A stretch of DNA of 63,814 nucleotides, filler included, from Rozella allomycis CSF55 (Eukaryota): assembly GCA_000442015.1 (NCBI GenBank). It is 6 parts of 6 records of this genome, joined end to end, with 100 filler letters (N's around TTAATTAATTAA, not from the genome) between each part and the next. Parts side by side here need not be neighbours in the genome. Positions count along the whole stretch, not along the records: positions 19,791 to 47,905 come from KE560886.1; 5 more parts are not named here. The stretch is one strand, 5' to 3'. Shown piece after piece: positions 19,691-62,743 of this stretch (positions are counted from its first letter, which is position 1; each line of letters opens with the position of its first letter). Position numbers and translations under genes: made by a program. The notes beneath the pieces are model-generated. The model was not told where the DNA came from. It saw nothing but the letters and a program-made list of their open reading frames with translations, and ran no database searches.

Positions 19691-19734
19691 NNNNNNNNNN
19701 NNNNNNNNNNNNNNNNNNNNNNNNNNNNNNNNNN

Positions 19735-19746
19735 TTAATTAATTAA
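19735..19746. other. Artificial six-frame stop linker TTAATTAATTAA inside N-gap (also 47950-47961, 49088-49099, 59477-59488, 62688-62699)
   Basis: Identical 12-mer embedded between N runs five times; stops in all six frames. Confidence 0.97.
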
Positions 19747-19792
19747 NNNNNNNNNNNNNNNNNNNNNNNNNNNNNNNNNNNNNNNNNNNNAG

Positions 19793-20687: not shown

Positions 20688-23600
20688 TTAATTAGAATCC
20701 AATTTTGATCTCTTTTGCTTTTTGAATGATGCAAGGGTATTTTCATATTCTTTTAATGAGTGTATAAACGATTGAATAATGACAGTCAAGTGGGACTCTT
20801 CATCCAATTCATCAACATCGATTTCCTTGTAATCTTTGACATCTTCCAATTCCTTGAAATTCATTTCTTTGTAATCTGTGAATATGGAATGAAGAATGTT
20901 TAATAGAATCAATTTTGAATGAATGGGTAATTTAGATTTAACTAAATCCCTAAATTCCTTGTGAGTATTTGAAAAAGTCTTTTTGAATTTTATAAATTTA
21001 GGATCATCAATTGGAATATCGTCAATGATTTGCAATGTATTTTCATAACTATTTTGATAGATTGTTATTCTTGCTTTTTCAAGCCACTTCTTTAAGGAAT
21101 TTACTATTCTATTAGACAGCAACAAAGATTCAACAACATCTATTTTATTTCCACCTTCATTTACATTATCACTATTTATTTCGCTCAATAGATGAGAAAT
21201 TGAAATTGTTGGAATTATAGAATTTTCATTTGTAGATTCTAGAATGTATAGATCAGATTTATATTCAAGTAAATCTAAATCAGTTTCAAGATCAAAGTCA
21301 TCTTTAGGTAGGAGATGATTGTTCAAAGGTAAAGTATTTAAAGCAAAAATGACTTTTAATTGATTTAATCTTGAAATAAAAAAGTCTTCATCATCTAAAG
21401 AATAATTGTATTGATTAAACCACGAGCCTAATTCATCATTATGCATCAATGATAGAAATTTACAAAGTGTACCAAGTTCTCTATTTAATCCATGATCATT
21501 CTCAGATATCCCATTTAAATGTTCAAAGAATAGAACATTATAAAGGGGATAAATGTGATTAAATAAAAGAGATTTTGTTACAATAAGATCAACCAAGCCA
21601 CCCTTGTGTAGAGTTAATTGACAAAGAATCAATCTTTCTAATAAATAGATGACAGACAAAGGATCAAAATCTTCAAAATAATTATAATAAATATCTTGTA
21701 TGATGCGACTATATTGATTTGTGCAGCCAAGAACTCTGTAGAATAAGAGTTCTGGTCGAATCGTTGATTTGAGAATATCTGAAATTTTCTTGAATGAACT
21801 TTCCAAATTTTCATGAATTATTTTAAAGATGAAATAGCCGCTTTGAAAAGAATTATAAACCAACAATTGGTGGATTAAATAGAATGAAAATTTTAATGGA
21901 AAAGATTTCATTCTTAAAACAATTGAACAAGAAGAAAGAAATTCAGATAAAATAAATTTAAATTGTTTTTGATTTGAAGATTGATTTAGAACCAGGGTTG
22001 AATATTTTATCATTAGATTTGAAAAAGTTGAAATTAAATTAAAATGAAAATTATTTTCAATATCTGAAATGTCAGAAAATGTCAGAATGCAATTCTTCAA
22101 TTTTAAAAGAATTTCCATTTGATCTACAAAACATTTTTCTTTAAAGAAATTATCCAACTCTTTTGTTAAATTAGATTTGTCTTGAATTTCATTAGAAGTT
22201 TTTAAACTATCATTAGAAGCATTTACAGTAACAGTGTCACTACATGAGTCCTTTAAAGTATTAACATCACTTTGTTCATTAGACTTTGAATTGCTAATAT
22301 CCACTGGCGCACATTCATTGTTATTATTCAACGTATCTTTAACAGTAATTTCCTTACTCTCTTTATCTTCATTAACACTATTGAATTCAACAATGTCGCT
22401 GCCTTCACTAGTCACATTGGAATCATTAGCATCATTAACTAGAACTGTATCACTACATTCAACAACTGTATCACTACAATCTTTGCTATCAACACCTTCA
22501 ACAACTGTATCACTACATTCTTTAACGTCATTAGCAACATTAACAACAGTAACTTCTTCAACTTTAGCAACATTAACTTGTTTATTATCATCTTTATCCA
22601 CTTTAGCAACATTAACTTGTTTATTATCATCTTTAACAACTATATCATTAACAACTTTGGCTATTAACTCTCCATTAATCAATTCAACATTGAAATTTAT
22701 TAAAGCAAAGTATGAAATAATTTCACCGACAAATTTAGATTTAAAATTATTTGAAATTTTATTAATGCTTGTCAGAAAAGAAGATTTCTCTAAATTTTTA
22801 AAACTTTTGTTCAAATTTGAATGCCAACCATAAAGTTTAACATAATCTCCATTTTTATTAACATTCAAGAATCCAAAATTTCTGTAAAATAAAATATTCT
22901 TGTGTTCATTAAATTGATCTGTCAACATTTTATTAATAAAATCAAAATATTCAAAATTAAACAATTTAAATGATTCACAAACATTAATAAAATCTTTAAA
23001 TTTTGATTCTTTAATTAAATAGTAAATTCTTGTAAAAATAATCAATTTGAAATAAAGTGGATCTATTTTGGAAATTTCCAGATCTAACATTTTCAATAAT
23101 TCTAAAACATTCCTTTCAGTAAACAATCTACCAAAAACTTTATAATCTTTGTTTTTCAATATTTCATCAATTATCAAATTTTCATTATTTAAATCAAATT
23201 TAAATTGATAAATAGAATATGAACTAATTAAAGTCTTGAACATTAAATCTGGATAATCCTTTTTTAATTCAGAGCTTTTAGAAACAATCATTGCAGCTCT
23301 TTCAATGTTATCAGCTTTATCCACTAAAAGATCAACACACAATCGTTTATTTCCTTTTTGTTCCAAATGATCAATGTAATTGTTTATATAATCTTGGTTT
23401 TCATCCAACAATGAATAAATAAAATCTTTTTCTTTTATTTCATCAATCACTCTACCAGCTGACAAACCAGTAGTGATTTTAGCACTCCCTTCAACCTTTT
23501 CTTTAACATCTCCTTTCCCTTGAAGCTTTTCCCTTTCCACGCTTTCTCTTTGTAACCTTTCCTTGTCTCTCTTTTCCTTTTCTATTAAATAATTGGCAAT

Positions 23601-26600
23601 CTCTTTCAAAAATTGTAATTTCAATTCTTTATCAATAACTTTAAACTCATTTTGATGATTAACAATAATTTCAAAAGCTTTTTCATAACACTTAGCATTT
23701 CTAAAACAAAGAAGAGAATTGTCGTAATCTTGAATTTTCAGAAACAAATTTCCAGCCTTAACAAAATCATCAGCATTGAAGAAACATTCAGCTGCCAATT
23801 TAAATTCATCAATTTTTTCAAATTCAATAGCAGCCTTCTTCAACAATGATTGTTTTTGATTTTTAGATAAGCTTTTGGATTCCAATTCATAAATTTTAGC
23901 CTGACAATAAGAGATTTTATAGACATTATCAGTATTTTTAAAGCAATTCAAAGCTTGAACATACATTTCTTTATTAAAGAATTCATTGCCTTTTTTATTC
24001 CATTCACTGTCAGAACTTTTAACCGCCAAAGTGTAATTTTTATTTTCATATTCAGCCAATTTAAAATTTATTAATAGATTGAAAAAATACAATGAATTTT
24101 CACTTGTATCAAAAAACACTAGAAGATTTTTAGCCCTGGTTATTCCAACATACAGAAATTTTAAATCATTAAAAAAAGTTGAATTATTTGAATGCTCAAA
24201 GTTAGAATTCTTTCCTTTAAAATAAGTATTCATTTTTTCAGCAAAATTTTCATTTAAATCTTCTTGAACAATTTTATCTAAAATTGTTAAATATCGCCAT
24301 TTATTCTCCAATAAAGAACTTTTAAAGAAATCGAAAATTACAACATCAGAAAATTCTAAACCTTTGGATTCAGTAATTGTTAAAACTTGAGCCTTTTTAT
24401 TATTTTCTTCAAGAATTCTTTCCAATTCCTTCTTTTTGAATTCATCTTTAACAAGAATGACTTGATCAGCCCCAAGTGAATTAGAATCTCCATACAAATA
24501 GATCAAGAAATTCTCAATGTTTCTGTGATTTAATATTGTTGGTTTCATTGTAGAATTAATAGCTCCAACTTCATCCTCCAATTTATCAATCTCAGATGGA
24601 AAAAAGAAATGAATTAATCTAGTTACGAAATTTCCTACTTTTAAAATGTTGGCTTGAGATCTAAAATTCTTCTTCAATTGAAACAAGTGCGGCAAAATAG
24701 ACGAATTGTTGTAATCATTCTTATTATCAGCAATAAAATAATAAAACAAATCTTTAATTATTTCAAATTTAAATATATTTCCTTCAGTGATACATTGAAC
24801 TTGATCACCAGCCAATGTAAACAAGGTTTGATTATCTCTTCTCATCAATAATTTAATTAACGCCATTTGAATCGGCAATAAATCCTGGATTTCATCAATG
24901 TAAATATAATCAAACACGGCTAAATTGTCATTTTGATGCAATTGATTAAACAAATGAAAACAAATATCTGAAATATCAAAATCTCCATTTTCATTTTTAT
25001 TTTTTTCATACTTTAAATAAAGTTGATAAATTTGTTCATAATCTACCTTGTTCAATTTACTCCTCCTAGTCTCGCCCTGTTTAATATATTTTGACATTTC
25101 CAAACATCTTTTATTCTCAATTAAATTATTGAATGATCCTTTAATATAAAACATTATTTCATTAAAAATATTTAAAGCTTCTGATTTTGTCTTACCTTTG
25201 AAATATTTTCTATGAAATTTCTCAAATCCAACAAAATTGTTTTCAAATGATTTCAAGTTGTTTCTTTTTAATTTATTCACGCTACTTGCATTTCCTTTAC
25301 CAACGCTCATTCTCATTTTATACTTTTCATATTCCAATTCGTTCATCAACATTCTATCTTCACAAAATGAATCTAAATAGATCAATAACCGCTTAAAAGA
25401 TAAGAATTTCGCATCAGATTCAATATTCATTTTCTTGATTTTATTAATCTTTGATATTTGCATTTCATATTCCTCTTTTACATTTCTGCAAAGGATTTCA
25501 CTTGCAGTTAAAAATAATTGCTTTCCATTCAAGTGTGACTTGAAATTATTAAAACTGACACAAAGCAATCTCCTTGATATAACACTAGTTTTGCCCGTTC
25601 CACTTCTACCAACGATAATCAAATTCTTTTTGTATTTAACAATCTTATTTTCTGTATCTTCCAACAAGTAAGGCAACTCTTTATAATCTTCAAAGTTATT
25701 CTCCAATAGAAATTCCAACGCTTCTGAATTTAAGGAATAGATTTTGCAGCTCAGATTTGATTCTTTTGAATTAGTTAAATTGGCTTGTGCTTGATCCACA
25801 CAGTCAAACCTTTTTATCCCTGTAGTCTCTGCCAAATCAAATCTGTTTGGATAAATTATTCTATTCTCATCCAAAACTAATTCACAAAAACATAAATTCA
25901 AATATTTTATGCTAAATTTATTAATGTTCTTTTTAAAAATTTCAAATCCTTTATATATTTCAGTTCCACTGATTAAATCCAACACTTCCAGCACTTGAAT
26001 TCTTTTATTCAAATCAACACCAATCGTCCAAACTATCTTTTTATTATCTCCAATGTCCTTCGCATAAAATATATTCCCTGCTTTATATTTTTCTTTTATC
26101 ATTTCCACACTATTAATATATGGTCTGTTATTGATCCCGCCAAAATTTCCTCGTGTCAATCCAATAATGAAATTAATCGCATTTCTCTTGATCAAGACTT
26201 GTTCTTTACTAATCTTCTTTAACGCATTGTCAACACTTCTCAAACTCCAAATTCCCTTCACATTTACCACTTTATTATTAATCAATTTCATTATTTCAAA
26301 TCTGTTTTCACTCTTCTCAATCTCTTGTATCATTAACCCATTCATCTTCTTGTTCCATAATTCTCTCAAATTAGCGGGAAAGGATTCATATATTGTATTC
26401 ATAGCAAAAAACGAACTCGTTGACATTACCATTCTCATCATATCCGTCCACAAATTAGACGATGAAAATGTATTCGCATCTCCAAACACCCATAATGCTC
26501 TTCTAGCTCTCGTTATAGCTACATTCATTCTCTGCGCATCCTCAACAAACCCAATCTCTTGCTGTGGATTAGATCTTGTCAATGACAATATTATTATATC

Positions 26601-28669
26601 CCTCTCATGTCCCTGATATGCATCAACAGTCCCGACATCAATTTCCTTTTCAACGCCAATCATTCTCATTGCTTCTTTAAAATCACCCATCTTTTCTTTA
26701 AATATTTCCACTTGATAACTGTATGGGCAGATTATGCTAATGGTGTCCTTTTCTTTTGGATAACAACTCACAAAATAAGACAAAAATGCTAAAATATGGT
26801 TTGCTTCAATTAAATTCCCCTTCGATCCGCTCAATGAACTATTTTCCATAGAATTGAAATGATTTATAAACATCAAAGGCTTGAAATACTTGGAGTCATA
26901 CCACTCGCATTTATAATTCAACACCTTCTTCGAATTCTTCAATTCGTTATCATAGAATGCCTTAGATGCAAATTTCACAATGTCTTTGTGCATTCTAAAT
27001 TGCTCTTTCAACATCACTACAGATTCGAATCCACTCCTTAACAATCTTTCAAAAAAGCTTGTCGCTCTTCCACTATCACGAATATCTTGAGATTTGCACA
27101 ATCCTGGTAACTGCTTTTCATCTCCTACAAGTGTAATCGACTTGATTCCATTGCGCAATAAGCTTAGTATCTCCCATTCCAAGCATTGACTGGCTTCATC
27201 CACAATCACCCGTCCACATTTTTCATTTATTAACCTTGAAGATAATGATGAACTCAAAGTACAAACATATATGGATGCTATTTAACGCTAAATAATTGAG
27301 GTACCATATTTTATGTAGTCTTTGGATATGTCAATATAGTCCTTCTTTTTACTGATCCTTGTTAATACATGTGATATATTCCACAAGTCATACAACGATA
27401 TTTCACCGTTTTCAAACTTTGTAATCGATTTTTTTATGCCATCAAATAGAGTTTTATGCTTAGTTATCACATTTTCATATCTCAAAATCTGCATTAGATT
27501 GTCCTCCATTGCTGCATACACATCATTTAAATTTTCATAATGTACAATACTGTCACGTTGAAGTAAATTCGTTATCAAGTCTGTCGCTATCGTTATTGTT
27601 CGAAAATATTCATTTATTCTCTCTTCCAACAAATACGGTCTTGTATCAGCATTCATTAATTCGATCAAAGTATCATATCTTCCAACTAACACTATCTTGA
27701 ACGGATCAATATTAAGCTCCCGGATGATTTTATTCAATAAACACACAACTGCGACATTTGTTTTGGCGGTAACCAAAATTGTTTCACCTGGAAAAAGATT
27801 TACTAGCCCTTCAATAATACCAACAATAGTTTGCGATTTTCCTGTTCCAGGAGGTCCCTTTACAAGCGAAATAGTGTTGCTATAATTAGCAACTACGGAC
27901 ATTTTATTGCCTCACGCTGCTCTTCATTCGCATTGTCGTATATTGCAGATTTAGATAATTCATAATTAATATGGTTCCGAGGTGCAACAAAAGGACTCTT
28001 GTAATGATCAACTCCATTCAAAACAATATTGCGTATGGAAGAAGGTATCAAATTTCTCTCGAACATCAAGGATCGTAAGAATCGAAAACCCGGACAAAAA
28101 CCAGCTATTGGAAGCAAATATCCTTCCTTAAATTGGCGATAATTATCACTTTTGTACATTATTTCCAATTTAAACTGCACAATCACTTGGGCTTGGGCAT
28201 CATCATTTGGAACTTGACGCTGGCCATATCCATAATTCTCTTGATCAATGATAAGAATGCCTATTATATGATTAGAAGTATAGAAATCTTCAAATCTCGC
28301 CACCCTTTCTTCTGATAGACAAACTAAATCCATATGCATGATCTCAGGCAACTCTTCGGAAAAAACAAAGCTTATCCTGGACTCATCCTCTCGCAACGAA
28401 AATGGAAAAGATTGACGATAAGTACTAGACTTGGACAAGTTTTCAACCACTTCAGTTCTCATTTCTTCTTTCACCAGAACAGACATGTAATCACACATCC
28501 CTTTAATAGATCCATACTCATCATTCAAGATTTTCGCTCGATAGTCTTTTTTGCAAAATGCGGGTATTCCATCACGCAAAAAGTTAAAGATTTTTTCCAC
28601 AGTCATATTTTCTACCCCTGCTTTTCTCGACGCGAAAATATATAAAAGATCAGTTGAGAAATCTCGCAA
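20688..28669 (-). CDS. Giant dual SF1 helicase: Upf1/Sen1-like helicase + RelE-like linker + UvrD/TRANK1-like helicase + TPR + low-complexity C-terminus
   Basis: First helicase GPPGTGKS, VDEASQ, VGDEKQL, QFRMH, TVDAYQGHERD, RMNVAITRAR; second GRSGTGKTS, YIDEIQD, AGDQVQCI, LKKNFRS, TITESKGLEF, LYVGITRAK; then TPR-like WNKKGNEFF...AAECF. One 27-nt intron near 27268-27294; frameshift near 27900; start uncertain. Confidence 0.85.
22420..22650 (-). repeat. Coding minisatellite-like repeats inside the helicase gene
   Basis: KDDNKQVNVAKV occurs twice and CSDTV three times here (once more near 22235). Confidence 0.8.
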
Positions 28670-28896
28670 TCTACTATCTTGGATCTATGGAAATTTATCG
28701 AGCTTGATTCTCAAGTTCAGGTAGAAAGCGGAGAAAAAAATAGAATTAAAGGCATAGAATCATGATGTAGTCGTAAACTCGTAATGCTAAATTGTACGTT
28801 GGTGACACGAACCATGAATCCATGAGAAATAATGGATCGTGTTTTTAAAATAAATCATACTATATTGACTAAGATGAAAATTTTTATTTGATAACG

Positions 28897-33763: not shown

Positions 33764-34779
33764 TTATAGCTTTTTAAATTTTCCCTGTAACCAAACTCTA
33801 TGCATTTGTAATTTCCGTTTTCTATTAACTAGTAGACGAGTGTCAATTTTCAGATCCAATTTTTCAAAGTCGCCAAACAACTCTGAGACTTTTTCTTGTG
33901 TGAAGTAATAGACACAAGTTCCATCGCCTCTTACGTAAAAATCTTCATCCAGCAGTCTATCCTTTTTGAATCGTAATTGAGTGAGATCATACTTCCCGTA
34001 ATCTCTGAATAGAATGACACCACCCGGTTTTAAAAGCCTAGCTAGTTTTGCAATAGCGATAGCCTGTCTATTCGGTGAAAGAGCTGATAACACAAAAATA
34101 AGAGTAATGACATCAAGTGATTCCGGCTCTATTTCATCAATCGCAGCATCCAATGACAAATCATGTACAAAAGCATGACACTTTGATGGATCATATTTTG
34201 CATTATTCTATTACAAAACAAATAAAAATATTACTTTTAAAACAGATACAGCTTGATGTGAAAAATCAAAAGCATAGAAAAAGTTGTCATGCCCATCTTG
34301 TTTCATTTCGACTAACGGGAACAGGGTATTGCCAANGCCCATCTTGTTTCATGTCAATCAACGGGAACAGGGTATTTCCAACACCGCAACCGGCTTCAAG
34401 AATTCTGCATGGTTTCTAATATTAAATAAATTGTATTGATACATTTTGAAACAGTTCTGGAAACTCTCTGGTTAGCCATTTTCTGTCTTTGAAAAATCTG
34501 TTTTCATGAACACTGTAAAATGCATCCCAAAAAGACGCAGATTTTTGTATAAAATCCACTTTTAATGTTTGAATAATTATTTTACATTTTTTCTCGTCGT
34601 TTACCGGATTTTCTTTTTGTTTGATGATGATTCTGTTCGCCTCTTCTATTTCTTCTTGTTTAAAGGTTACATTGTCCCTGAATGATGGAGATTGTAAGAA
34701 TATACCAAACGTTGTGATCGAAAACGTTTTCTAAATTTTCGAGTATTCTGTTTCCAAAAGGTTTTTCTTGTGGGACCAT
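33764..34779 (-). CDS. TRM140: tRNA m3C32 methyltransferase (TRM140/METTL2 family)
   Basis: FGNRIL..VFDHNVW, FWDAFY..HENRFFKDRKWLTREFPEL, ILEAGCGVGNTLFP, FRDYGKYDLTQLRF, YVRGDGT, VNRKRKLQMHRVWLQGKF. Confidence 0.93.
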
Positions 34780-34910
34780 TTTTGCGCTAGCCACCGCGAT
34801 TACTTAATGTACAAAGTTAATGATAAAATGCGTTGATTACAGAATTATTTAATTACAATATTAAAATATTTCAACAAATTATTTACTTCAAAAATATTGA
34901 AACACTTTTA

Positions 34911-37900
34911 TTAAAATCTGCGCGAATTGTTGTAAATAGCCAACGCATCATTAATCTGCAAACAAAACCACTATTTAAAAAGAATAAAAATAAATACATT
35001 AGCAGTGCTATGATCAGAGCAAGAAATAAATCTCTGCGCAAATTCAGGATGCCTAATTAACAAAACAATGCCATCAAACGTAGTTTTAACAGCAATAAAT
35101 ACTAGAGGAGAAATTAAAAATAGTTTATACTGTCAAAAGGAATTTCCCATATTAATTTCAAGTTTCTTTCGGCCAAATAGATGATTCTTTGATTTGAAAC
35201 AATAGCAATTGAATTATCTTCAGGAACATTAATATGAGCAACGTAAAAATCATTAATGTATTTTGAATGGGCGCATTCTTTCAGGAATGACTGACCAATA
35301 GCGTCTCTTTCTGAAAAGGGTCTTAGAATTCTATCGTAAGCGATGAATCTTGGGAGTCTGATTCTTGACACTTCAAATTCATCGAATGCAATAGTTGTAT
35401 TTTTGATTCCCTCTGAAACATTACTAGCGAGATCAAAGACACCGACTATTGGTTTGGAAACTGCGCCCACTAGACCCTTGCCGATTCCTTTGAAGAAACC
35501 GCCAACGCCATCTTTGATTGCGCCCTGAGTTGGTTTTTCAATTAATCCAGTGACACCGCTTTTAATTGAAGAAGCGAATGATTTAGCACCCAGAGCAACA
35601 CCATTGAAGACGTGTTTTGGTTTATTTCTTGATTTTGATTGTCTTCTTTTTTCTTGAAATTTAGAATCCAGAGTGACTACAGATAAACCTATTAGGGTTA
35701 GTGATATGAAAATACCTTTTCCAACAGAGCCAGTAAACTTTGAGAATGCATCAGAGAGGCCATAAACAGTTTTATTTAAAAAGCTAGCACCACCTACTTA
35801 ATGGTTAAAAGTATTGAATACCTAGAATAATAATTTAAAAGCATTGAATACCTATAATCATCATTTAAAAGTAAGTATTACCTAGAATCATATTTTATAA
35901 AAGTTGTAACCTTTAGCTAGACCAATACCAAAATCTTGAGGATTGTCAGAAACCAAACCTAGATAAGGTTCGTAAAAAGCGTNGATTATCAGAAACCAAA
36001 CCAAGATAAGGTTCGTAAAAAGCGTCTTTAACAGCTGAAGAAAAAGTGTTGAATAAACCAACAGGATTACCTAATGAGAATAAAAGAATAATTTGAATAC
36101 CGAGAATGTCAGCAGAGCCTAAAAGTTTGTGAAACTGTAGAGTTAATTTAAGAGAATAGTATTCGAGGATTAGTTTGTAGAGTAAATCTTTTTGAATGAT
36201 TGGATGTTCCATTATTAGAGCATTTAAAGTAATTGGAGCATTGTGAACATTCCCTTGTGAATAAGTTTAACTATATTTACCAATGGCCATTGTTAGAGAA
36301 TCTAGAATGAGAGAGAAAGGATTTCCTTTTTTAATCTTGTTTCCAGATCTAGAGAAAGAAAAGTTAATTTTGAGTGGATGTAATTGGAATACTTCAAAGT
36401 AGATTAATTGATTTGAAATATTTGAATTATTTTGAGTTGGAATTTTCAAATCTTTATTGAAGGGATTTTCAGTAGAAATTTTAGATTGAAAAGAAATAAA
36501 ATCAAATAATTCATAAAGAAATCTACAGATTAAAAAAGAAAAAAAGATNAAAGAAATCTACAGATCAAAAAAGAAAAAAAGATTTACTTTTCATCTAATT
36601 CAATTGACATTTCTTGGAATAGAATACTGAAATATTTGAAATAATCAACACCGTGATTTTTATCTTTTGATTTAAAGATTGAACAAGAAAAGAAATTGAG
36701 TTCATCGTTTAAGTTTAAGCTTGTGGGATAAAAGATGATTGGTTGATCAAATCCATACAATTGATTATCAAATTGCAACCATTTTATTAATAATTTTAAA
36801 TTTAAATCAAAATCTGAATCTGAATATTCTAGAAATAAATCTTTTGCTGAAATTAAACCAATTTCAATTGAATTATTTATTAAAGAAACCAACAAATTAA
36901 ATCTCAAAGTTAAAAGATGATTCACAACATAAGAAGAAAAGTTGGAAGAATTTGATTGAGAATGAGAAAGTGAAAGAGATTTAGATTTTGATTTGGAAAG
37001 TGAAAATGGTTGAGCCAACGACAATGATTTACTAGACACATTCTGATTAAGAGTAGGTGTATTAGTTGTATAAGTTGTATTCTGATTAGATACACTCTCT
37101 CTTCTCTCCCCCTTAACTTCCCCTCTTCTCTCTTTGATGGTGACTAGAGTGGTCTNCACCCCTTTCTTTGATGGTGACTAGAGTGGTCTCATTTTGAGCT
37201 ATAATGTCGGCATAAATTAAACAATCATTAAAATTGAAAGATTCAGTTAAACCAATTTCAGAAATATTTAATTCAAAATTCTTGTTGTTTCTTTTTAAAA
37301 TTAATTTCTTTTCAATTGTTGAATTTTCCCAAATGTAATTTTCTTGTTGATTTTCATTCAAAGTAAAAATATTTGAACAATTCTTTTGAAAATATTTAAA
37401 TTGAAATTTTGTTTGATTTATTAATTTAAATGGCCAATTAATAGAATGATTTATATTAACAAATAGAATGTTTGATTCACTCACTATATCTATTCTTATC
37501 AATTCATTATTCAAACTTAGAAATGTTTTTCCCAGATTTCTAAAATTAAACAACAATTGAGAGTGAGATGATTGAGAGAGAGAAGTAGTTGGTTGAGATG
37601 AAGTAGTAGTTGTTTGAGATGAAGTAGATGATGAAGTAGTTGAACTATCAGTGTTCATCCCTTCACCCTTACTTCTACCCCCTTCACCCTTCCCTTCATC
37701 ACCTTTTAGTTCAATGATTGAATTGTTCACTTTCAGGTCAGAATGAAATGGAATTTGCTGATTCATTTTCAATTCATAAATGTTTTCATTTAAAGAACCA
37801 AATTGTTTAAATTTAATAGTCTTGTTTAATTGATTCACAATAATTATTTTTGGTGTCAATGTAACAATTGTAGATTTAAAATACTAGAATAATCTATTAA

Positions 37901-40900
37901 ACTATTTTACTTTGGTTATAGAGATTCCAATTGAATATTCAATTTGTTTATTTCTGTTTGGAATTAAAACATGATTTTCAATTGAATCAAAGTTTATTAA
38001 TCTGCTCCAATCAGAGTCCATCACTTTTAAATAAACCTTATTAAAACTAGCCAACGTTATCTTTGAATTATTAAAGTTTGAATTATTAAAGTTTGAAGTG
38101 TATTGATAACTTCTTTCACCACTCTCATCATCTACTTCAGAGTCATACCAGTTGATGTTCTCTTCCTTGTATTTAATTAATAAACCAGTTTTATTCAAAA
38201 TAACAAAAGGAGATGAAATGGAAACTCTTTTTGAAATCCCAAATTGATTTAAATTTTCATATTCAATTTTCAACTTTAAATTCTTGTTTCTAAAAGATAA
38301 ATTATAATCAACTTCATTTCCATTTATTATAGCTTGACCTTGTTTAAATTCAGTTTCTAGAATATCAACCAAGATTGAAATTGTCTTTTTAATGTCAATT
38401 TGATTCATTGCATATTCTTCAACACTTTTAATAATCCCTCCAAATGCAAATGATTTTTCTTCTTCATAAATTTTATAATAAATATCAAATGGTAAACAAT
38501 TCTGAATTATTAAACAATTATAAATAGTAATAGTTAAACATGGGTATCTTTATAAATCATCAAATCTAATTTTACTCGAAATTTTCTACTTTGATTTCTA
38601 ATTCAAATTTCAAATTTAATTTTTCATCTTTTAAATTTCTACATTCAATCAACATTGCACAATCTTTATTAAATTCTCTCCAATTGATTATTTCATTGCA
38701 ATATTCAATCCCTTCAATGTTTGGTCTCACTTTAATCACATTGTCATACAACAACATTGGATCAAACCCTCCACCATCTTCTGTTGCTATTTTAGGGATA
38801 AAAGTAGAAATTACCAATTAATATTTTAGATTTTAAAAGTAAAGAAGCATCAAGTAACGTAGCTTCAAATGGAAGATTAGTTTTATTTCTTATTTGAATT
38901 GTTGATTCAAAGCAAACATTCTATTCAACTAGAAAATTTAAACTTTTACTTTGATATTCCCATCCACAAACACATTCACACACACCAAATGTTTAGGGTT
39001 AGGGTTTAATAGGTTTGAAGTGTTTAAAGGGTTTAAAGGGGTTGAACTAGTGAATGAACTAGATGGACTTGTGGGCTCTCTTAATTCATTCCCCCTACTT
39101 ATTGGCTCTCTCAATTCATTCATCTTTTCCTTTTCAACGTCTCGCTTCAAGGGATAGTATTTGGTTCCTTCCTTGTCAATTGGAATTTCATTAATCTTTT
39201 TAAAATTATCCAATTTGATTGAAATCAACAATAATTGAATATTTCCCATTCTAGTTGAATCATTTAAATCTTTAAAATTAAATGGAATCTTTTCTCCATT
39301 TTTAATTAATCTCTTTTCATCTTTATTAAATAATTCAATTAAACAACCAGTCTTATTTATTATAACACATGGATACCCTTGTTTTCTCTTGTTTGGTTTC
39401 TTTTCTATTTGTTCAAAAATGTTTTTTATATTCTTCATGAATTGTTTATTAAGATTAACCATTAAATCATTCAATCCATTCAACTCATAATTCATTGTTC
39501 CCTTGTTGTCTTTATTCACCTTGATTTGAGTCTTAAATGATTCAACCAATGGTTCCCAATGGGAATTGCTAGAATTGAAATAGTTCACATTCATTTCAAT
39601 CTCACTCTTCAACTTTAAATTCAAATTCCAATCTTTCACTTCCATTTGATGTTTATCAATCTTTATATCCAATATTGGCAACTGACATTCACTAACATCA
39701 TCAATCAACAGAAACTTTATTCCCTGACTATTCCATGTCAACAATTCACTCATCACAATCAATTCACTTGAATCCATCCAAGTAACATTAACGTTCAAAG
39801 TATCACTATTAAGGTTTAAAGTAGTATTATTCAAAGTAGTAGTATCACTACTTGCACAAATTACTTCACCTTCACTACTTCTACCCCCATCAACTTCAAC
39901 TCCCCCTTCAATAAAGTTTGTTATAATTTTGTAAACCAATAAAATATCATGATAAGAAATTCTAAATACAATTGGCTTTGTATTCAACCAATAATTAACA
40001 CATTGATTCATTTGATCATTTTCTATCGTTAAAGATGCATCAAATTCATCAACAAATTTAAATAATTCTTTTTCATTCATATTCAACAAAAATAATCCAA
40101 AATTCTCAAAACTCAAACTTGAATTTCCTTTGGTTGAATACACAAACTGTTTCATCTTGATCAATATCGCTTCTGTCTCTTTATTCTTTAAATCTTCCAA
40201 AATAAACAATTCAAAGTTCACTACATTAACCAGAAAATAGAAAACAGAATTTGTATTGTTTTTTGACTGTGATTTAGAATTTGATTTAACATTTGATTTA
40301 AAAGTATTCCTTTGGGCTCCATTAGAACCTTTCAAATTCATTTCTACTTTATTATCTTTTTGGGGATAATTGTCAAGAAAAAATGATTTAATTGAATAAA
40401 TGTTATTTAAACTTGTAATCATTTTGGGACTATCAAGAGTTACTTTAACCATCCCATTCCCATTCTCTACCATTGTATACTGAATAAACAATTGTCCATC
40501 TGAATATTCACTCTCTGGTATTATTTGTGTATAATATTGTTTAATACTTCTAGTATCATCCAACGAAAATGAATCAACCCAAACATCAACCTGCATTTCT
40601 CCCCTGTCTCTCTTGAAATTCAAAACACTCTTGTTAATCTTAAACAAACAAAAATTCAAACATTTTCCATCTCTCAAATTGAACAATTCCAATTCTATCC
40701 CTTGCAATTCCACAACAATTTCATTAATCACTTTATCAGGTGTATTAAGATTTTGAAGAGCAAGAGTATTAAGAGTATTAGTTAAAGCACTCCCCATCAC
40801 TTGATCAGTCACTCCAGCAGTCACTTTACTATTCAATTCATCACTCCATTCACCCTCTACTCTCCCTTCTCCTTTCTCTCCAACTTCATCACTAAATATC

Positions 40901-43900
40901 TCACTCGTTGAATCTATTAGATAAAAAACATTCTTCAACAACATTTCATACAAAAATTCATCCAATTCTACCTTCACTCGACTCACATTCCCCTTGACAT
41001 ACATTCTTGGTTCTTTATCATACTCAATTCCCAATTCAACATCAAAATCTTTCATAATCTTCTTTTTCCCATAAAATGTTTCTGCTTCCACTTTAGCTGA
41101 CTGAATCAAAATATTCAATTTCTTTTCATTCTCTTTAATCAACTTTAAATTTCCAAGATACGAAATTATTTTCCCATTTTCATCTTCAATATCTCTCACT
41201 TGCACTATTGGCGTTGACAAGTTGATTTCATAATTCATTTCACTCTCACTCTTTTCATTCTCAAGTGGAAATGATTTTATAAATTTCATCAATCGCTTTA
41301 AATCTTCATGACAATAAAATAAATGCAAAGAGCCTCCATTCAACTTTAGAAAATTATCAAAATATTCAAAACTCAACACATTCTTTCCCTTTAGAAATAA
41401 ACCTTCATCTTTAGAATCATAAAGTTCATGTTCATTATATACTTTTTTTAAATTTGAATTAATACGCTTGATTTTGATCTCTTTTAGATTTCCAATAATT
41501 CCTTTATCAATTTGTAAATTTCCTTGTTCCAATTCAACACAAGAAAAACACTCTTCTCCATCAAACAACATAAACTTTATTCCCTCAAGCGATATCCACA
41601 CATCCAATTCACTCTTATTATCACTTTTAACTGATTTTTTATTAATAAACGTCAAATTCAAATATTCCTGAAATTTCTTAATTACTCTGGGATCAACAGT
41701 CAAAGTAACTTTGGAAATAAACAGTTTTGCTTGTGGCTTTAAACCCATCAAATACTGCAAATTCATAAATTCATGCCGGCCTTTTTCTGATTCAAAAACA
41801 TTTTCTTCTTCTTTAATGTAAAATGAACCAAACTTTATTTCAACTTGAGACTCCATTTCTTTTTTAGAAAAATCAACGGAAAATGACTCTACTCCAGTTT
41901 CACCTACATATAACAGAAATGGTGCATTTGATTCATTTAATTTTATCAATCTTTCATCGTCTTCTTCCTTATAAATGATGGCTTTCAATTTCTGAATTTT
42001 CAAAGTGAATTTCAAAATTTCCTTATCAATTACAGGGGTTTCTTCTGCATCATAAAAGACTTCTTCTTCTTTTTGATCATCCATTGATTCATTCAAAGGA
42101 AAATAAATATCAAATAATTTTAACAATTTATTATATTTAACATTAGAAAATAAAAGATTAATTTCATCTGTGAAGGAGTCTATTAATATTCTAGTAACGG
42201 ATGGAACGATTCCAATCTGAAGAATCATTTTTAAATTAACATTTGGAATAAACTGAAATTCTTTTCTATTAAAGTTATTTTCAAGATAAAATTTGTTGAA
42301 TGGAATGTAAAGCATTTCAAGTTTTGATAAATTTAAAATAAACTTGTCGTACATTAGTTTATTCAAATCTTCTTCATTCATTTCATTTTTATTAATTAAG
42401 TCGCTTTTAACATTCAATCTTCCCAAGTCTGCTATAAACAATGAACTCTTTAAATCAGAAACATCAAATGGAAGAATTAAAAGTGGAGCATTCAAATTCA
42501 ATTTTAAATCAAAACTTTTATGTTCTTCCAATGCAAATTGCAAACCAGCCCTGGTCATCTTTATTATACCCTTGTTGGCGGCATTCACAATTGCATCCAA
42601 CGTTTCATTCGTTCCAATTCTTTTAAAAAAGTTTTGTAAAACATTTATTAATTTATAATTATAAACCAGCTTTAATGGCTCCATATCAATCTGTAATGAT
42701 TCATCCGCCTCTCCATGCAGCGGTTTATGTTGGTAATTCAACACAACAAATGGTTTATTCAACTCGGCAATATTTATAACATTTGATTCTAATCTCTTTG
42801 AATCAACGATAGTAGTCTTGCCTGAATGCCCATCAAATTTCCTTTCACATAAGCCGAAATCAAATTACTTTTCAACAATCAAAGGAAATAAAGTTCCAAT
42901 CGTTCCATCTCTTATTGAAATATCTTCTAGCTTCATTAAAACATCAAATGAAGTTTGTCTTTAACAATTAAACCCAATTTTCTTACCTGGTCGAATATTT
43001 CATTTCAAGACCCTCAAATCTCGCATTTAAAAATTCTAATTTATTATTAATTAAACATAATGATCCACTCTTCAGATTAAATCTCAAATTTAGTAATACA
43101 GCATCTTTCGAAATTTCCCAATTCAATTCATTTTCATTAAATCCAATTGTTTCATACAAATTCTTCAAATCTTTATCAGCCTCTTCTTTTCTACTGGAAT
43201 AAAAATATGAAAACCATCCACCGCTTACCTCTGGCTTCTTTTCCTTCTTTTCTCTCTCTCGTTGCTCTTTCCCTGCAATGCTCCTGTACAGTCTAATGTC
43301 TTCAATACTTAATATTCTTTCAAGTAACTCAATCTCCTGTTTATCCAAATCACTCATTTTATTATCCAACTTTTTATTAAACAAGGAAACATATTTTCTT
43401 CTTTCTTCTCTTCTCTTTTCAAAATACTTCCAACTCCACTTTTCATTTCTTTCTCTTATAGACTTTTTCACACAAGAAATAGCAAATCTCCACCACTCTT
43501 TAGCATTTGTTTTCACTATGGAATTCATCGGTCTCATTGATTGAAATCTCTCTCTTCTTTTCAATCGATCAAATAAATCCATCAATAATTGAAAATCAAC
43601 NNNNNNNNNNNNNNNNNNNNNNNNNNNNNNNNNNNNNNNNNNNNNNNNNNNNNNNNNNNNNNNNNNNNCTCGTCTTTGCCTCATGTTCAGCTGGTGCCCT
43701 TCGCAAAGTAATCATCCCCTTTCCACAAATTGGTTCAATCAAATATCTATTTGTATTTGAATTCGTTTCAACTCTCTTAAACTCTTCAATCATTGTGGAA
43801 ACATCATCGCCTGATATTCCCACATATTCATTCTCCCAATAAACGGAAAAGCAATCCATCTTTAATAATTTGTAGACGACTTGCGCTATATTCTCAACAA

Positions 43901-44592
43901 AAATCTCTTCAAATCGCTCATTAGTCGACACAGCTGATATCTCTGTCAGATTTATTCCACAACTAAACGGTTTCTATAACATATCAACAAATATTCCTTA
44001 CTTTTGGATTAGATATTCGATCTTCATATCTTACATGTATATCCTTGATAACTACTTGTACATTGTCAACAATTTTCGTTATCAGCTGCGACACAAATGA
44101 TTCATTCCTTTTCTTCTCTTCTTCTGTTTGGCTTTTCTGTTGCAATGGACTAATCATTTCAAATTCCTCCAACATTTGCATCTTCAACCTATACTCTCTC
44201 TCTTTCGCCTCATTTTCATCATACTTGTTAATTTACTTTAAAAAACATACCTTATTCTCTTCCTTTGATCCAACAAGTAAATATACTCCATTAATAAACA
44301 CTTTGACACTCTGAGACTTTAGGTTTTGCCATGGAATCTTCAAAATCAACTCCTCAACACACCCTATCTTTAATTCAAAAACAAAAATACCTTCATACAC
44401 ATTAATAGGCAACTTGAATTTATCTAGCGCATCCTTTCTCAACTTTAAATTTTTCAATTTCACATCCCCTATTCTCCTTACCAAAATTACTGTACCATTC
44501 CAAATTGCTATATTTAATTGTTGCTTTTCTAGATTTGAAATATATTCGCCAAGAAATTTGTTAACAAAACCTGTAACTACTGCCTCAAACAT
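34911..44592 (-). CDS. VPS13: VPS13 bulk lipid transfer protein, multi-exon, with N-gaps and low-complexity inserts
   Basis: Chorein N-terminus MFEAVVTGFVNKFLGEYISNL...LKIPWQNL, KIVDNVQVVIKDIHVRYED, NSHWEPLVE, LQFDNQL, FYEPY, GAVSKPIVGVFDLAS, RIRLPRFI. Confidence 0.96.
35794..35910 (-). other. Compound intron of four contiguous GT...AG units (29, 30, 30, 28 nt) in VPS13
   Basis: Minus strand: AAAG|gttacaacttttataaaatatgattctag|gtaatacttacttttaaatgatgattatag|gtattcaatgcttttaaattattattctag|gtattcaatacttttaaccattaagtag|GTGGT; removing all four restores GIGLAKGGASFLNKTV. Confidence 0.8.
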
Positions 44593-44863: not shown

Positions 44864-47800
44864 ATGGCGCAGTATAATCAGATGGTGGCAAAAACACCGT
44901 GTACATTCTTTTTACAAAACAAATGCACAAAAGGAACTACATGCGAATATTCCCACGATGAAAAGTTTAAGCCATGCCCATACCTTCTAACTGGGTCTTG
45001 CAAATTCGGGAACAAGTGTAAACACTCGCACGATATTCCTATCTGTCTTTACTACAATCTAGGGAAATGCACAAAAGGCGATAAATGCCCTTTCAGACAC
45101 GTCAAAGAAACAAAAGAGGATTTTAAAGGCGAGTTTTCGAAGAAAGAGATTCCTGTTTGCTCATTCTTTATTAAAGGAACTTGTGTCCATTCAGGCATGA
45201 GAAAGAAGAAGGAAAACAGAGTCCAATTTGCTCATTCTTTGTTAAAGGAACTTGTACTAAAGGGGATAAATGTCCATTCACACATGAACTAGGGATGTCC
45301 CCAACAATGAACCAACCAGAGAATGATGGTGTAGTAAAGTTGGTTGAAAATATTAAGATTGCAGATACTATCGATCAGACAATGGGTGGAAGTATGAAGT
45401 GCACATTCAAACAAGGCGCTGAGGTGAAAAGTATCAAACTTGGATTCTTTGAAGGTGACATGATCAAAGTATCAAATGCCAAAGCTGGCCTTACTTTTGA
45501 AAATGTATTTACTGAATTTGAACAATTTGGACAAGTCTTATCTTTCAATTGTAGGGAAAATGATTATTTTATTGAAATCAAATTTAAAAGTGCAGAATCT
45601 AAAACTGGATTTTTGTCGAAATTTAATGGAAATTATAATGAAGCTTTGTCAATTGACGAGGATTTACCTATTTATATATCTTTTATTGGTAACGAAGGAC
45701 ATGCAACAATTAAATGTACAAGCACTGTCACTTGGTTCATCCCTTCTAAAATGTGCTTTGTATATATATTTAATAGGCTAAATGAATCCAAAATCAGTAA
45801 AATAAATACAAAAGAGTCACATGGTTATAAAGTTAAGTGCGAGAGATTATCTGGTGGGTTCATGGGTGGATTGGTATTCAAATCTGTTCCAATTTACTTT
45901 AAAGAAGGCTGGCTTTACTCTATTATGGAATCAGTTGGTATTTCCTTTTCATCCGTGGAAAGTCTCAAATTTAATATAGAAGAGGTTCGTTCTGAACAGG
46001 AAATTGCTTTACTTATTAAGAATAGTCTTTATCCAATTCCAAACTTTGTCGTTAATAAACCCAAAGAAAATAGTCCCATCAGGACAGCTTCTCTTACATC
46101 ACTCAGAGACACTGTAACCTTAAAGTTAAATGCATCAAATGAAGAATTCAATCCTTCTCTCAAGAATATTTACAGTTCCAAAGTTAAAGTACTTCCATTG
46201 GAATGTTTGAAAGTATACTTAAAAGAGAGAAAGGTTGAAATGCATTTGTGGGAAGGCCCCAANAAAAATCAGTAAATTAAATACAAAAGAGGCGCATGGC
46301 TATAAAGTTAAGTGCGAGAGATTATCTGGTGGGTTCATGGGTGGATTGGTATTCAAATCTGTTCCAATTTACTTTAAAGAAGGCTGGCTTTACTCTATTA
46401 TGGAATCAGTTGGTATTTCCTTTTCATCCGTGGAAAGTCTCAAATTTAATATAGAAGAGGTTCGTTCTGAACAGGAAATTGCTTTACTTATTAAGAATAG
46501 TCTTTATCCAATTCCAAACTTTGTCGTTAATAAACCCAAAGAAAATAGTCCCATCAGGACAGCTTCTCTTACATCACTCAGAGACACTGTAACCTTAAAG
46601 TTAAATGCATCAAATGAAGAATTCAATCCTTCTCTCAAGAATATTTACAGTTCCAAAGTTAAAGTTCTTCCATTGGTCTACAAAATAAACAAAGAGGAAC
46701 TGGAATGTTTGAAGGTATACTTAAAAGAGAGAAAGGTTGAAATGCATTTGTGGGAAGGCCCCAAAGTTATGACTGTTGGAATCTTGGGTGAAGACAAGAA
46801 AATGATTGAACATGGCTTAAGATTGCTTCAAGGGATACTTAAAGGGAAACTGGTTAATGTAAATAAAACTGGAGTGCCGTTATGGGATGATCACTTTCTT
46901 TCTAAACAAGGTGAAATTTTCTTGAGGGAACTGGGTACAATGAACCACGTATTTATTTACAGAGACTCTAGAAATAAGTGTCTTCTTTTGTATGGCATTG
47001 ATTACAACTTTGACGTTGTCTACACCGGCTTAACTGACAAACTTGAGGAAATTAAAAAGAGCACTTTTACATTTAAACTAAACCAACAGAAATTTGCGTT
47101 GGTTGTTAAACATAATTTACTTGAAAGATTATCTAATCTGATTAAAGGAGACATTCATCTTGACATTACGAAAAAGAGTATCGTTGTTTCAAACTGTAAA
47201 TCTGAGAGAGTACTCATACAAAGGCAAATCGAAGAATGCATGAAAAATTCAATTACAAATACGAAATCTTCTCATGAAGAATTATGTCCTATTTGTTTCT
47301 GTGGCGTCGAGGATGATCTGATCATCTTGGCCTGTGATCACAAGTATTGTAGAGAATGCTTCTGTGCCTACATCAAATCTGCTGAAGTATTTCCAATAAA
47401 GTGCCTATCTGAAAATTGCAATAACCCCTTACTTTTAAATGATATCAAATCATACGTCCAGGAATACGAATTCAACAATCTTTTACAGAAATCATTCAAT
47501 CTTTACATATCTCAACACCCGGAACTTTATTTTTATTGCAAGACACCAGATTGTACCCAGATATTCAACAAGTGTCCATCATCAAAAGATATGCTATGCA
47601 CACAATGCTTTTCTTCGATATGTGTTAGTTGTGCAGAATTTGCACATGAAGGTCAAACATGCGCTGAATATCAACGAACAAAAAATATGACTATGGAAGA
47701 CAAAGAATTTGAGAAATGGAAAAATGCAAACAAGGTCAAATTATGTAAAAACTGTGGAGCTTCAATACAAAAAGGTGAAGGATGCCAGCATGTCACTTGT

Positions 47801-47902: not shown

Positions 47903-48005
47903 TAANNNNNNNNNNNNNNNNNNNNNNNNNNNNNNNNNNNNNNNNNNNNTTAATTAATTAANNNNNNNNNNNNNNNNNNNNNNNNNNNNNNNNNNNNNNN
48001 NNNNN

Positions 48006-49043: not shown

Positions 49044-49143
49044 NNNNNNNNNNNNNNNNNNNNNNNNNNNNNNNNNNNNNNNNNNNNTTAATTAATTAAN
49101 NNNNNNNNNNNNNNNNNNNNNNNNNNNNNNNNNNNNNNNNNNN

Positions 49144-58000: not shown

Positions 58001-58300
58001 ATCGATCATCTGTTTCACAAATATTGCGGACACGGAACTTGGATTTGCCGGGAATATACCAATCTGTCGCGATTCGTTGTAAATCCATCAAGAATTGTTC
58101 AATTCTCTTCACAAACTAGGCAAACTTTCTGATGATAATAAACTAAGGTCATTTGTTGTCGTCTCGCGTGATTCTAGGTGATGATGTTGCTAGGAGCCAA
58201 TTTTTCGTGAAGGAGATGTTGCACGTTGTAAGCTGACATTATGACATGATGACTACGTTCTTCAGACCAGGTAAGTGAGTTTGTTTAGAATTAAAAAGGA
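55100..58300 (-). mobile_element. Degenerate Ty1/copia LTR retrotransposon (gag-PR-IN-RT-RNase H), many stops/frameshifts
   Basis: WIIDTGCTSHMT (PR), TVRSDQGGEY and WGEAINAANY (IN), MVGYNEYSKG, EPDNYKLAI, LVDLPKGQKVV, VPYRLAV (RT), YVDADCAAD (RH), in copia order. Boundaries approximate; LTRs not resolved. Confidence 0.88.
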
Positions 58301-62643: not shown

Positions 62644-62743
62644 NNNNNNNNNNNNNNNNNNNNNNNNNNNNNNNNNNNNNNNNNNNNTTAATTAATTAAN
62701 NNNNNNNNNNNNNNNNNNNNNNNNNNNNNNNNNNNNNNNNNNN

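Follow-up and report, generated by a model that had tools for sequence, protein, structure and literature searches.

In the fungal parasite Rozella allomycis CSF55, the VPS13 gene contains an intervening sequence that is very probably an array of complete spliceosomal micro-introns in tandem, joined to one another through zero-length exons. We propose that this array arose by duplication of a single intron and that it would be removed stepwise, one unit after another, and for this whole statement, the array together with its stepwise removal, we estimate a probability of roughly 0.55. The locus lies in a window of 63.8 kb, by which we mean the whole stretch of DNA that was analysed.

The array and its host gene

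Read directly from the DNA, every unit of the interruption starts with GT and ends in AG, and the three internal joints are all AG|GT (Table 1). The exact division of the 117 nt into four such units, of 29, 30, 30 and 28 nt, which the original prediction had put forward, is borne out. On the minus strand, the exon context reads ...GGT CTA GCT AAA G before the array and GT GGT GCT AGC... after it; there is no unique sequence at either flank, the array consisting of an integer number of whole introns. Fungal VPS13 and human VPS13A/C are continuous across the site (...AKG-GAS...), and the alignment to them has a 39-residue gap exactly at the array. Since the homologues are ungapped at this point, all 117 nt are non-coding, in agreement with the earlier claim and with the reading frame, which is open after their removal, while translation straight through the array meets 7 stops. 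By its borders and by the restored colinearity with the homologues, the array as a whole is a U2-type GT-AG spliceosomal intron.

It had also been claimed that each unit carries its own in-frame stop, and in phase 1 after the exon G all four do, TTT TAA in U2, U3 and U4 and ATA TGA in U1. These stops are not independent events, however, as they are largely inherited with the CTTTTAA core that is common to the units. The suggested link to NMD gains no support from these data. The public gene model for this locus, P0138, places here one intron of 114 nt, with the AAG acceptor and the protein ...AK V GGAS; the TAG acceptor gives the better fit to the homologues, with a removal of 117 nt and the protein ...AKG GAS. 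The same model retains the 27-nt neighbour intron as coding (GIFISLTLI), and because it keeps a true intron in this way it is not RNA-based.

Table 1. Features of the VPS13 locus of Rozella allomycis, in positions of the window
Feature	Position	Strand	Remarks
VPS13 gene	34911..44592	-	ATG at 44592, stop codon 34913-34911; ~3030 codons
Whole array	35794..35910	-	117 nt non-coding, phase 1 within a Gly codon (G|GT) of VPS13
Unit 1 (U1)	35882..35910	-	29 nt; donor GTTACA, atypical T at +3; acceptor CTAG
Unit 2 (U2)	35852..35881	-	30 nt; donor GTAATA, acceptor ATAG
Unit 3 (U3)	35822..35851	-	30 nt; donor GTATTC, acceptor CTAG
Unit 4 (U4)	35794..35821	-	28 nt; donor GTATTC; tandem AAG|TAG acceptor (NAGNAG) at 35799-35794
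Exon downstream of the array (GASFLNKTVYGLSDAFSKFTGSVGKG)	35716..35793	-	homology to VPS13
Upstream exon, 3' part (...AFYEPYLGLVSDNPQDFGIGLAKG), as far as the N junction	35911..35982	-	homology to fungal VPS13
Neighbour intron, 27 nt	35689..35715	-	in frame, stop-free; 9-residue gap against all homologues
Neighbour intron, normal, 30 nt	36071..36100	-	first 8 nt GTATTCAA, as at the starts of units 3 and 4; removed in P0138
Assembly artefact	35941..36025	.	unmerged 42-43-nt overlap around the N at 35983; TRF period 43, 2.0 copies, 95%

The identification of the host gene as VPS13, which encodes a lipid-transfer protein, holds. The Pfam matches to VPS13_N (Chorein-N), VPS13_M, VPS13_VAB and VPS13_C come in this order, PDB entries for VPS13A/C match at E 1e-33 to 1e-36, and a public protein matches as well. 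In addition to the array, the gene has 14 introns of 27-30 nt; it is interrupted by N junctions, and its pieces are all open once the introns are removed. Past the array, the C-terminal region shares 44-48% identity with fungal VPS13. A ciliate reading of the sequence was considered and ruled out: ORFs of 2197 and 1308 codons are obtained with the standard code, and P0138 names the species. The organism is thus a fungus that uses the standard code.

The units are diverged tandem copies

Several measures support the earlier view that the units are related yet diverged, as tandem copies of one whole intron would be. Tandem Repeats Finder (TRF) reports a period of 30 over the array, with 3.1 copies and 80% matches, and self-identity is 0.64 at period 30, as compared with 0.26-0.39 across periods 24-35. 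The pair scores of U2 with U3 and of U3 with U4 are both 10, a value that is equalled by only one of the 1128 pairs formed by the 48 other introns of the window. Similarly, the best scores of the units are 9-10 among themselves and 5-8 against those 48 introns, a comparison made within the window that bears on a possible kinship with introner-like elements, whose many near-identical copies are dispersed over unrelated genes. The units differ from one another at about 25-30% of positions. Moreover, a chain of at least four GT..AG units, each 24-32 nt long, occurs once in the window, while 100 Markov simulations gave on average 0.01 such chains per window. In the alignment of the four units, the GT and AG columns are invariant (4/4) and the other columns are so in 8/26 cases (hypergeometric p ~0.02), although this test is a weak one, with four sequences, an alignment anchored at the ends, and an outermost GT and AG that any model requires.

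We also considered a special kinship between the units and the normal 30-nt neighbour intron, and rejected it: the overall score is 5, which 43/1128 of the background pairs equal. A second intron-like array was not found in the 63.8-kb window, where chains of at least three units number 7 against 1.2 expected. Six of these are three-unit chains that lack the tandem unit similarity of the array, four lying in long ORFs and two over one known intron of 26 nt. Likewise, none of the 53 candidates of 33-134 nt in the window, not each of which was checked by homology, equals two intron-like units. The ancestral number of units was sought in 80 metagenomic relatives, and the site is intron-free in 78 of them and uncovered in the other 2. 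Judged from the DNA, the tandem copies, together with the difference in copy number between alleles described below, fit the multiplication of an intron by tandem duplication or repeat expansion.

Intron size and splice signals in the window

A histogram of ORF junctions, which is unbiased with respect to length, gives one peak of intron size in the window, at 26-30 nt. The range of 24-31 nt given in the original prediction for the other introns was therefore about right, and each unit has the normal intron size of the organism. Apart from the array, the ~48 introns of the window include no supported one longer than 31 nt. The suggestion that the spliceosome is limited to introns of ~30 nt is thus consistent with the 63.8 kb analysed, and its scope is that of the window. 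For comparison, a median intron of 29 bp is given for one fungus in the cited extract (PMC8042348).

Splice sites were scored against 41 seed introns, a set chosen by construction at 25-31 nt, and all unit sites fall inside the range of this set, with three donors at its lower edge. The 5' splice site of U1 scores 3.45, just above the lowest seed intron, and its 3' splice site scores 5.66 (rank 16/41); the donors of U3 and U4 are likewise just above the lowest, while U2 ranks 6/41 at its 5' site and 32/41 at its 3' site. Given these donor scores, the internal units may be poor substrates. Similar donors occur elsewhere, the GTT donor in one case supported by homology (intron 1169-1141) and the donor start GTATTCAA in the bona fide intron 36100-36071. 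A strong or usable branch-point consensus was not found in the 48 window introns. About one third of them have a TTAA[ACT]-like motif 9-14 nt from the 3' end; this motif lies 11-13 nt from the 3' end in U2, U3 and U4 and is absent from U1.

The array in other contigs and a second allele

The array is genuine DNA. The single N at 35983 was confirmed as an unmerged overlap of 42 nt with 2 mismatches, and an independent contig passes over it. This contig (X5, 5994 nt) comes from another study; it covers the array and omits only the 43-nt duplicate at the N, going from 35942 to 35986. The array sequence is also present in shorter contigs from two further studies (X1 and X3), and both alleles are carried there. 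Expansion of the array by the assembler, which the original prediction had named as a result that would speak against it, is not upheld, as contigs of three other studies carry the array.

These contigs also differ from the window. The piece of X5 that corresponds to 34340-35942 covers 1603 nt in the window but 1629 nt in the record, and its alignment contains 34 gap letters, which means that 30 nt are inserted and 4 deleted, for a net gain of 26. The 'from_end' values place 30 extra columns between 35825 and 35812. In X1 and X3, one contig each ends at 35871 with 17 loose letters, which read as the 5' half of U3 fused to the 3' half of U2, after an end of the U2 type, and depth over the array is ~1.5x that of the flanks. 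The 4-nt deletion lies at 35869 in all three (X5, X1 and X3), leaving a U2 of 26 nt. From the contig coordinates and the loose ends, the letters of the insert itself being unseen, we infer another allele whose array has five units, 143 nt and four internal AG|GT joints. If the number of units is indeed polymorphic, four in one allele and five in the other, this would be direct support for intron multiplication.

Of the exon differences listed between the two alleles, 11/12 are synonymous, from which it follows that each of the two arrays has to be spliced out. The host gene is under purifying selection in both alleles, and the array must therefore be completely removed from the mRNA. The seven substitutions listed between the alleles avoid the splice dinucleotides, an observation that carries no weight, as ~1 hit is expected by chance.

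Discussion

We propose that the array began as one phase-1 intron of ~30 nt, bordered on both sides by the four letters AG|GT, and that this ancestral intron would have been duplicated in register through replication slippage or unequal crossing-over. The outcome would be the four units (117 nt) of the window allele and the five (143 nt) of the other. Removal would proceed in steps of one unit, sometimes larger, with an intact AG|GT joint left each time, and the units would likely leave in 5' to 3' order, co-transcriptionally. Stepwise removal appears most likely because no unit lacks a GT or an AG of its own and all belong to the one length class found locally (26-31 nt), and it would obey the same principle as recursive splicing at zero-length exons. 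The structure that recursive splicing needs is present, with three internal AG|GT joints and a donor regenerated after the first step, and this makes recursive unit-by-unit splicing plausible from the sequence. It is tempting to go further and to speculate that the Rozella spliceosome has a hard upper limit near 31 nt, that a 117-nt or 143-nt interruption could be cleared only recursively, and that in-register duplication of introns at AG|GT microhomology is a general and ongoing route of intron multiplication, with zero-length exons as a first stage that is later separated or lost. This extended version is improbable, in our judgement.

A different reading would make the array one long intron (117 or 143 nt) with a 30-nt minisatellite inside it, removed in a single step in which the U1 donor works with the branch point and acceptor that the last unit supplies, while the joints within the array are silent relics of its duplication. 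An ordinary intronic minisatellite would indeed share with the array a tandem repeat of period 30 whose copy number differs between alleles, a change that is typical of such repeats; here, in contrast, the repeats keep exact register with the exon borders on either side, and every one of them has full splice dinucleotides at normal intron length. The missing unique flank and the integer count of whole introns speak against single-step removal, as does the fact that all internal GT and AG are intact despite a unit divergence of ~25-30%. The size of the known introns does so too, both in the window, with no other supported case above 31 nt, and in VPS13 itself, where the other 14 are 27-30 nt long. 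In addition, the only donor usable at the start has its first competent acceptor 29 nt away, which is the preferred distance, and this acceptor is transcribed first, and no RNA structure joins the outer sites (z -1.83; 14/200 shuffles fold equally well). The reading is nevertheless helped by the donors of U3 and U4, which are weak for this organism, and by a public gene predictor that accepts a single intron of 114 nt; a 117-nt intron is not chemically forbidden, and the microsporidian relative E. cuniculi, according to the cited extract, splices a relatively long intron well (PMC6349667). On balance, we consider removal in one step less likely than stepwise removal, but a serious rival to it.

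It would be less likely still that any donor pairs with any downstream acceptor and that transcripts retaining units, being non-productive, damp the output of VPS13. Human UBC is reported to yield ladders of isoforms from AGGT sites in tandem repeats (PMC10809524, in the part cited), donor strengths in the array are unequal, and each retained unit adds a stop in the reading phase; but productive mRNA must arise, since both alleles are kept and their flanking exons are under purifying selection. The two remaining readings have very little chance of being correct. One is that an assembler expanded a single intron beside a scaffold junction: the unmerged single-N overlap is only 73 nt away, in a rough draft with many such junctions, but units that differ at ~25-30% of positions are not collapsed or expanded identical repeats, and the 5994-nt contig crosses the array, whose sequence two more studies carry. 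The other, a pseudogene or a gene truncated at this point, from which the array would never be removed, is at odds with a frame of ~3030 codons that is open after intron removal and has all VPS13 domains, with the largely synonymous exon differences (11/12 of those listed), and with the conservation of the C-terminal region past the array (44-48% identity to fungal VPS13).

Stepwise removal of the array would have clear relatives. Both of the processes involved, recursive splicing with exons of zero length and the gain of introns through repeat expansion, are already known kinds; an array of whole introns with zero-length exons was not found described in the literature collection searched. Ratchet-point recursive splicing is described, in the cited extracts, for long introns of Drosophila and vertebrates (bioRxiv 10.1101/226894; PMC8605326; PMC5126111), and one of these sources reports zero-length exons in use in a fungus, S. 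pombe, in two cases (bioRxiv 10.1101/226894). As in the array, the intervening sequence contains an acceptor that abuts a donor (AG|GT), and splicing at this point regenerates the donor. However, the ratchet cases in these extracts are long introns, of hundreds of nt to >100 kb, cut into unrelated segments, whereas the Rozella array is 117-143 nt long in all and made up solely of three or four putative joints of this kind between homologous copies of a micro-intron. Similarly, the dual-specific AGGT sites of human UBC and VCX3A occur once per repeat unit (PMC10809524); according to the portion cited, intron length therefore becomes a multiple of the repeat, and each site is a potential donor or acceptor. 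In UBC, as described there, each repeat encodes a ubiquitin monomer (228 nt) and it is coding units that splicing drops, while the Rozella units are purely intronic.

The repeat expansion reported in Cryptococcus (PMC2395259) shares with our proposal the multiplication of introns by unequal crossing-over or slippage and a polymorphism of intron number in the population. In the extract cited, a repetitive DNA region of the gene is involved and the gained introns are counted separately; in Rozella, by contrast, the repeat unit is the intron alone and the exons between units have zero length. The stwintrons of filamentous fungi (PMC8469720) are also complex intervening sequences that need more than one splicing reaction, and their order is obligatory, as the cited part explains, because the donor, the branch point or the acceptor of an external intron is split by an internal one. 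The Rozella units do not belong to this class, as they stand end to end with every GT and AG intact, and no step preconditions another.

If the units do leave singly, recursive splicing would here operate on its smallest scale, and its driver would be intron duplication, in an organism with introns that are nearly all ~28 nt long, and not extreme intron length. An intron number that differs between two alleles of one strain would be a rarely caught and directly observable step of intron gain. The locus also addresses the question of whether spliceosomes adapted to short introns measure intron length, and is a naturally occurring case in which to ask whether tiny introns are removed singly. Even if removal occurs in one step, an organism of micro-introns would be seen to tolerate an intron 4-5x its norm.

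The array and its host gene

The gene hosting the array is VPS13, since it carries VPS13_N, VPS13_M, VPS13_VAB and VPS13_C in that order (Pfam) and matches human VPS13A/C at E 1e-33 to 1e-36. On the minus strand, its frame reads ...GIGLAKG, then 117 nt, then GASFLNK.... The original prediction of an array of GT..AG micro-introns is borne out by the sequence and can be extended, as the DNA is real and the number of units polymorphic: four units (U1-U4, numbered 5' to 3') account for all 117 nt exactly and, because every unit begins with GT and finishes with AG, the three internal joints read AG/GT. The two exon borders are likewise AG/GT, with AAAG closing the upstream exon and GTGG opening the downstream one. 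Each unit also contains the stop attributed to it, reading in phase from the exon's G.

Features of the window discussed in the text
Feature	Position	Strand	Description
U1	35910-35882	minus	29 nt, GT..AG
U2	35881-35852	minus	30 nt, GT..AG
U3	35851-35822	minus	30 nt, GT..AG
U4	35821-35794	minus	28 nt, GT..AG
Stop-free VPS13 intron	35715-35689	minus	27 nt, in frame
ABC-transporter intron	1169-1141	minus	29 nt, GTT donor
Helicase gene	20691-28684	minus	very large; AAA_11/AAA_12 and UvrD-type domains
Copia-like retroelement fragments	56313-58087	minus	SH3_retrovirus and Pol_BBD domains

Comparison with homologues shows that the array is non-coding. In alignments with stops rendered as X, the gap is exactly the 39 array codons against both a fungal VPS13 (P0018, 48% identity) and a chytrid one (P0077, 44% identity), and human VPS13A is uninterrupted at this position. 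Excising the 117 nt gives ...AKG GAS..., the same as in P0018. The public Rozella protein P0138 (ROZALSC1DRAFT_17209, Rozella allomycis CSF55), identical to the window's exons at 245/245 aligned residues and so identifying the species, uses instead an AAG acceptor three bases upstream (NAGNAG), giving a 114-nt intron and an extra residue V. P0138 also retains the stop-free intron as nine coding residues that are missing from every homologue, so the model reflects a gene predictor and cannot serve as RNA evidence; stop-free introns of 3n length may be systematically mis-annotated in the Rozella genome. The standard genetic code applies in the window (ORFs of 2197 and 1308 codons), which rejects a ciliate origin. 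Once 14 introns of 27-30 nt and the array are excised, each VPS13 piece between N junctions is one open frame (289 + 2092 + 191 + 169 + 289 codons).

A length-unbiased search for GT..AG segments of 15-400 nt linking two ORFs gave a single peak in the window at 26-30 nt (12, 11, 7, 6 and 12 candidates, above a background that is mostly 1-5 for each length). Our working set of 48 introns (41 seeds and 7 added by hand) spans 25-31 nt, a range partly built in, as the seeds were picked at 25-31 nt. Among the window's candidates of 33-134 nt, surveyed in bulk, none resembled a second array or a well-supported long intron. Tiny introns in the Rozella lineage are consistent with published figures of ~30 nt for R. 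allomycis S23 introns (PMC6349667) and a median of 29 bp for one fungus of a set that includes R. allomycis (PMC8042348). The ORF-junction filter missed the intron in the mitochondrial-type ABC transporter gene, which is backed by protein continuity; the census thus undercounts non-GTA donors.

Tandem duplication and allelic variation

That the units are tandem duplicates of a whole intron, as first proposed, is well supported. TRF reports a period of 30 with 3.1 copies and 80% matches, and self-identity is 0.64 at period 30 vs 0.26-0.39 at neighbouring periods. U2-U3 and U3-U4 score 10, equalled by 1 of 1128 pairs of other window introns, and U1-U3 scores 9 (2 of 1128). Simulated windows yield GT..AG chains of at least four units at a mean of 0.01 each. 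Twelve of 30 alignment columns are invariant, including all four GT/AG columns and a common CTTTTA core; invariance of the splice columns (hypergeometric p ~0.02, in an end-anchored alignment whose outermost GT/AG are required under any model) hints weakly that the internal joints may be under constraint.

Four sequencing runs, all as DNA contigs, were aligned to the window. A 5994-nt contig of run X5 spans 34340-38900; the only stretches it passes over are the 43-nt duplication by the N (35942->35986) and a comparable one at 36549. The single-N sites are therefore unmerged overlaps, and the array, present on this contig, is not an assembly expansion. Its array differs by a 4-nt deletion in U2 and by seven listed substitutions, all of which spare the GT and AG dinucleotides. 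The piece 34340-35942 measures 1603 nt in the window vs 1629 nt in the contig with 34 gap letters, so 30 nt are inserted and 4 omitted; the 30 extra alignment columns fall between 35825 and 35812, placing the insertion within the array. Runs X1 and X3 contain both alleles: each has a contig stopping at 35871 with 17 loose letters, which match the U3 5' half plus the U2 3' half after a U2-type end, and in both runs array depth is ~1.5x that of the flanks. Taken together, these data indicate a second allele, which we infer from coordinates, with five units (29/26/30/30/28 = 143 nt), the form that an unequal exchange involving U2 and U3 would produce. Eleven of 12 listed exon differences near the array are synonymous, and VPS13 is functional in both alleles. 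Because 117 is divisible by three and 143 is not, the entire array has to be excised from the mRNA of either allele.

The X1 and X3 contigs over U1 at 35876-35900 fall into three types, similar in depth (the reference, one with four variants, and one with just two of these four, 35889 and 35900), a pattern suggestive of a third haplotype or another form of the array.

The duplication origin of the array is well supported, and slippage or unequal exchange by one intron length is favoured because the intron bears identical AG/GT at both ends; the four/five-unit polymorphism shows the multiplication process to be still active. No intron was found at this site in the 78 metagenomic fungal relatives covering it (80 fetched), meaning that the intron is either restricted to this lineage or has been lost widely, with no outgroup for the single-unit state.

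Removal of the array

Every route of removal would have to cut at the U1 donor, GTTACA. Its T at +3 is locally unusual, among seeds themselves chosen to begin with GTA, and one homology-supported GTT donor occurs elsewhere, in the ABC-transporter gene. The acceptor closest to this donor is that of U1, 29 nt away, the organism's preferred distance, and transcribed first; its use would join the exon to the good U2 donor, and removal could proceed unit by unit, with internal units leaving in any order because each excision leaves an AG/GT joint. We put the probability that stepwise removal is the main route at about 0.55. Counting against it, the U1, U3 and U4 donors score barely above the lowest of the 41 seeds and the U2 donor ranks 6 of 41; the acceptors of U1-U4 rank 16, 32, 33 and 4 of 41. 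In addition, no branch-point consensus was definable in the 48 window introns, whose splice signals are information-poor. The weak-donor objection is softened by the U3/U4 donor, GTATTCAA, which is the same as in a bona fide intron (36100-36071).

Removal of the whole array in one step is a tentative alternative that we consider less probable; no RNA structure uniting the outer sites was found (z -1.83; 14/200 shuffles fold equally well). It is improbable that the sites pair promiscuously, yielding non-productive products. Recursive splicing of the array is plausible and cheaply testable.

Zero-length exons with recursive splicing have been described in animals and in two S. pombe cases (bioRxiv 10.1101/226894), human UBC uses AGGT sites recurring once per tandem repeat (PMC10809524), and repeat expansion produced an intron-number polymorphism in Cryptococcus (PMC2395259). 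Stwintrons differ from the array in that a signal of the external intron is split by an internal one (PMC8469720). No array built solely of whole micro-introns was found in the limited collection of literature searched.

Other features of the window

Single-N junctions at 293, 35983, 36549, 37156, 48913 and 59002 are bordered by duplications, mostly of 12-58 nt, and a ~475-nt duplication of 99% identity lies around 46263 (45790-46089 vs 46265-46564). These junctions look like unmerged allelic overlaps; the breaks they make in the VPS13 frame are artificial, and those at 35983 and 36549 are missing from independent contigs. Linkers of the form N44-TTAATTAATTAA-N44 occupy 19691-19790, 47906-48005, 49044-49143, 59433-59532 and 62644-62743; the window strings together six or more distinct scaffolds, and features across a linker are therefore not genomic neighbours. 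The window also holds the copia-like fragments and the helicase gene, in which the exons before the 2197-codon domain-bearing exon are linked by candidate introns of 27 and 23 nt, the latter beginning GTGAGG. Over the long minus-strand exons at 38000-44000 and 22000-28000, GC skew on the plus strand is strongly negative (-0.29 to -0.44), which means a marked excess of G over C on the coding strands.
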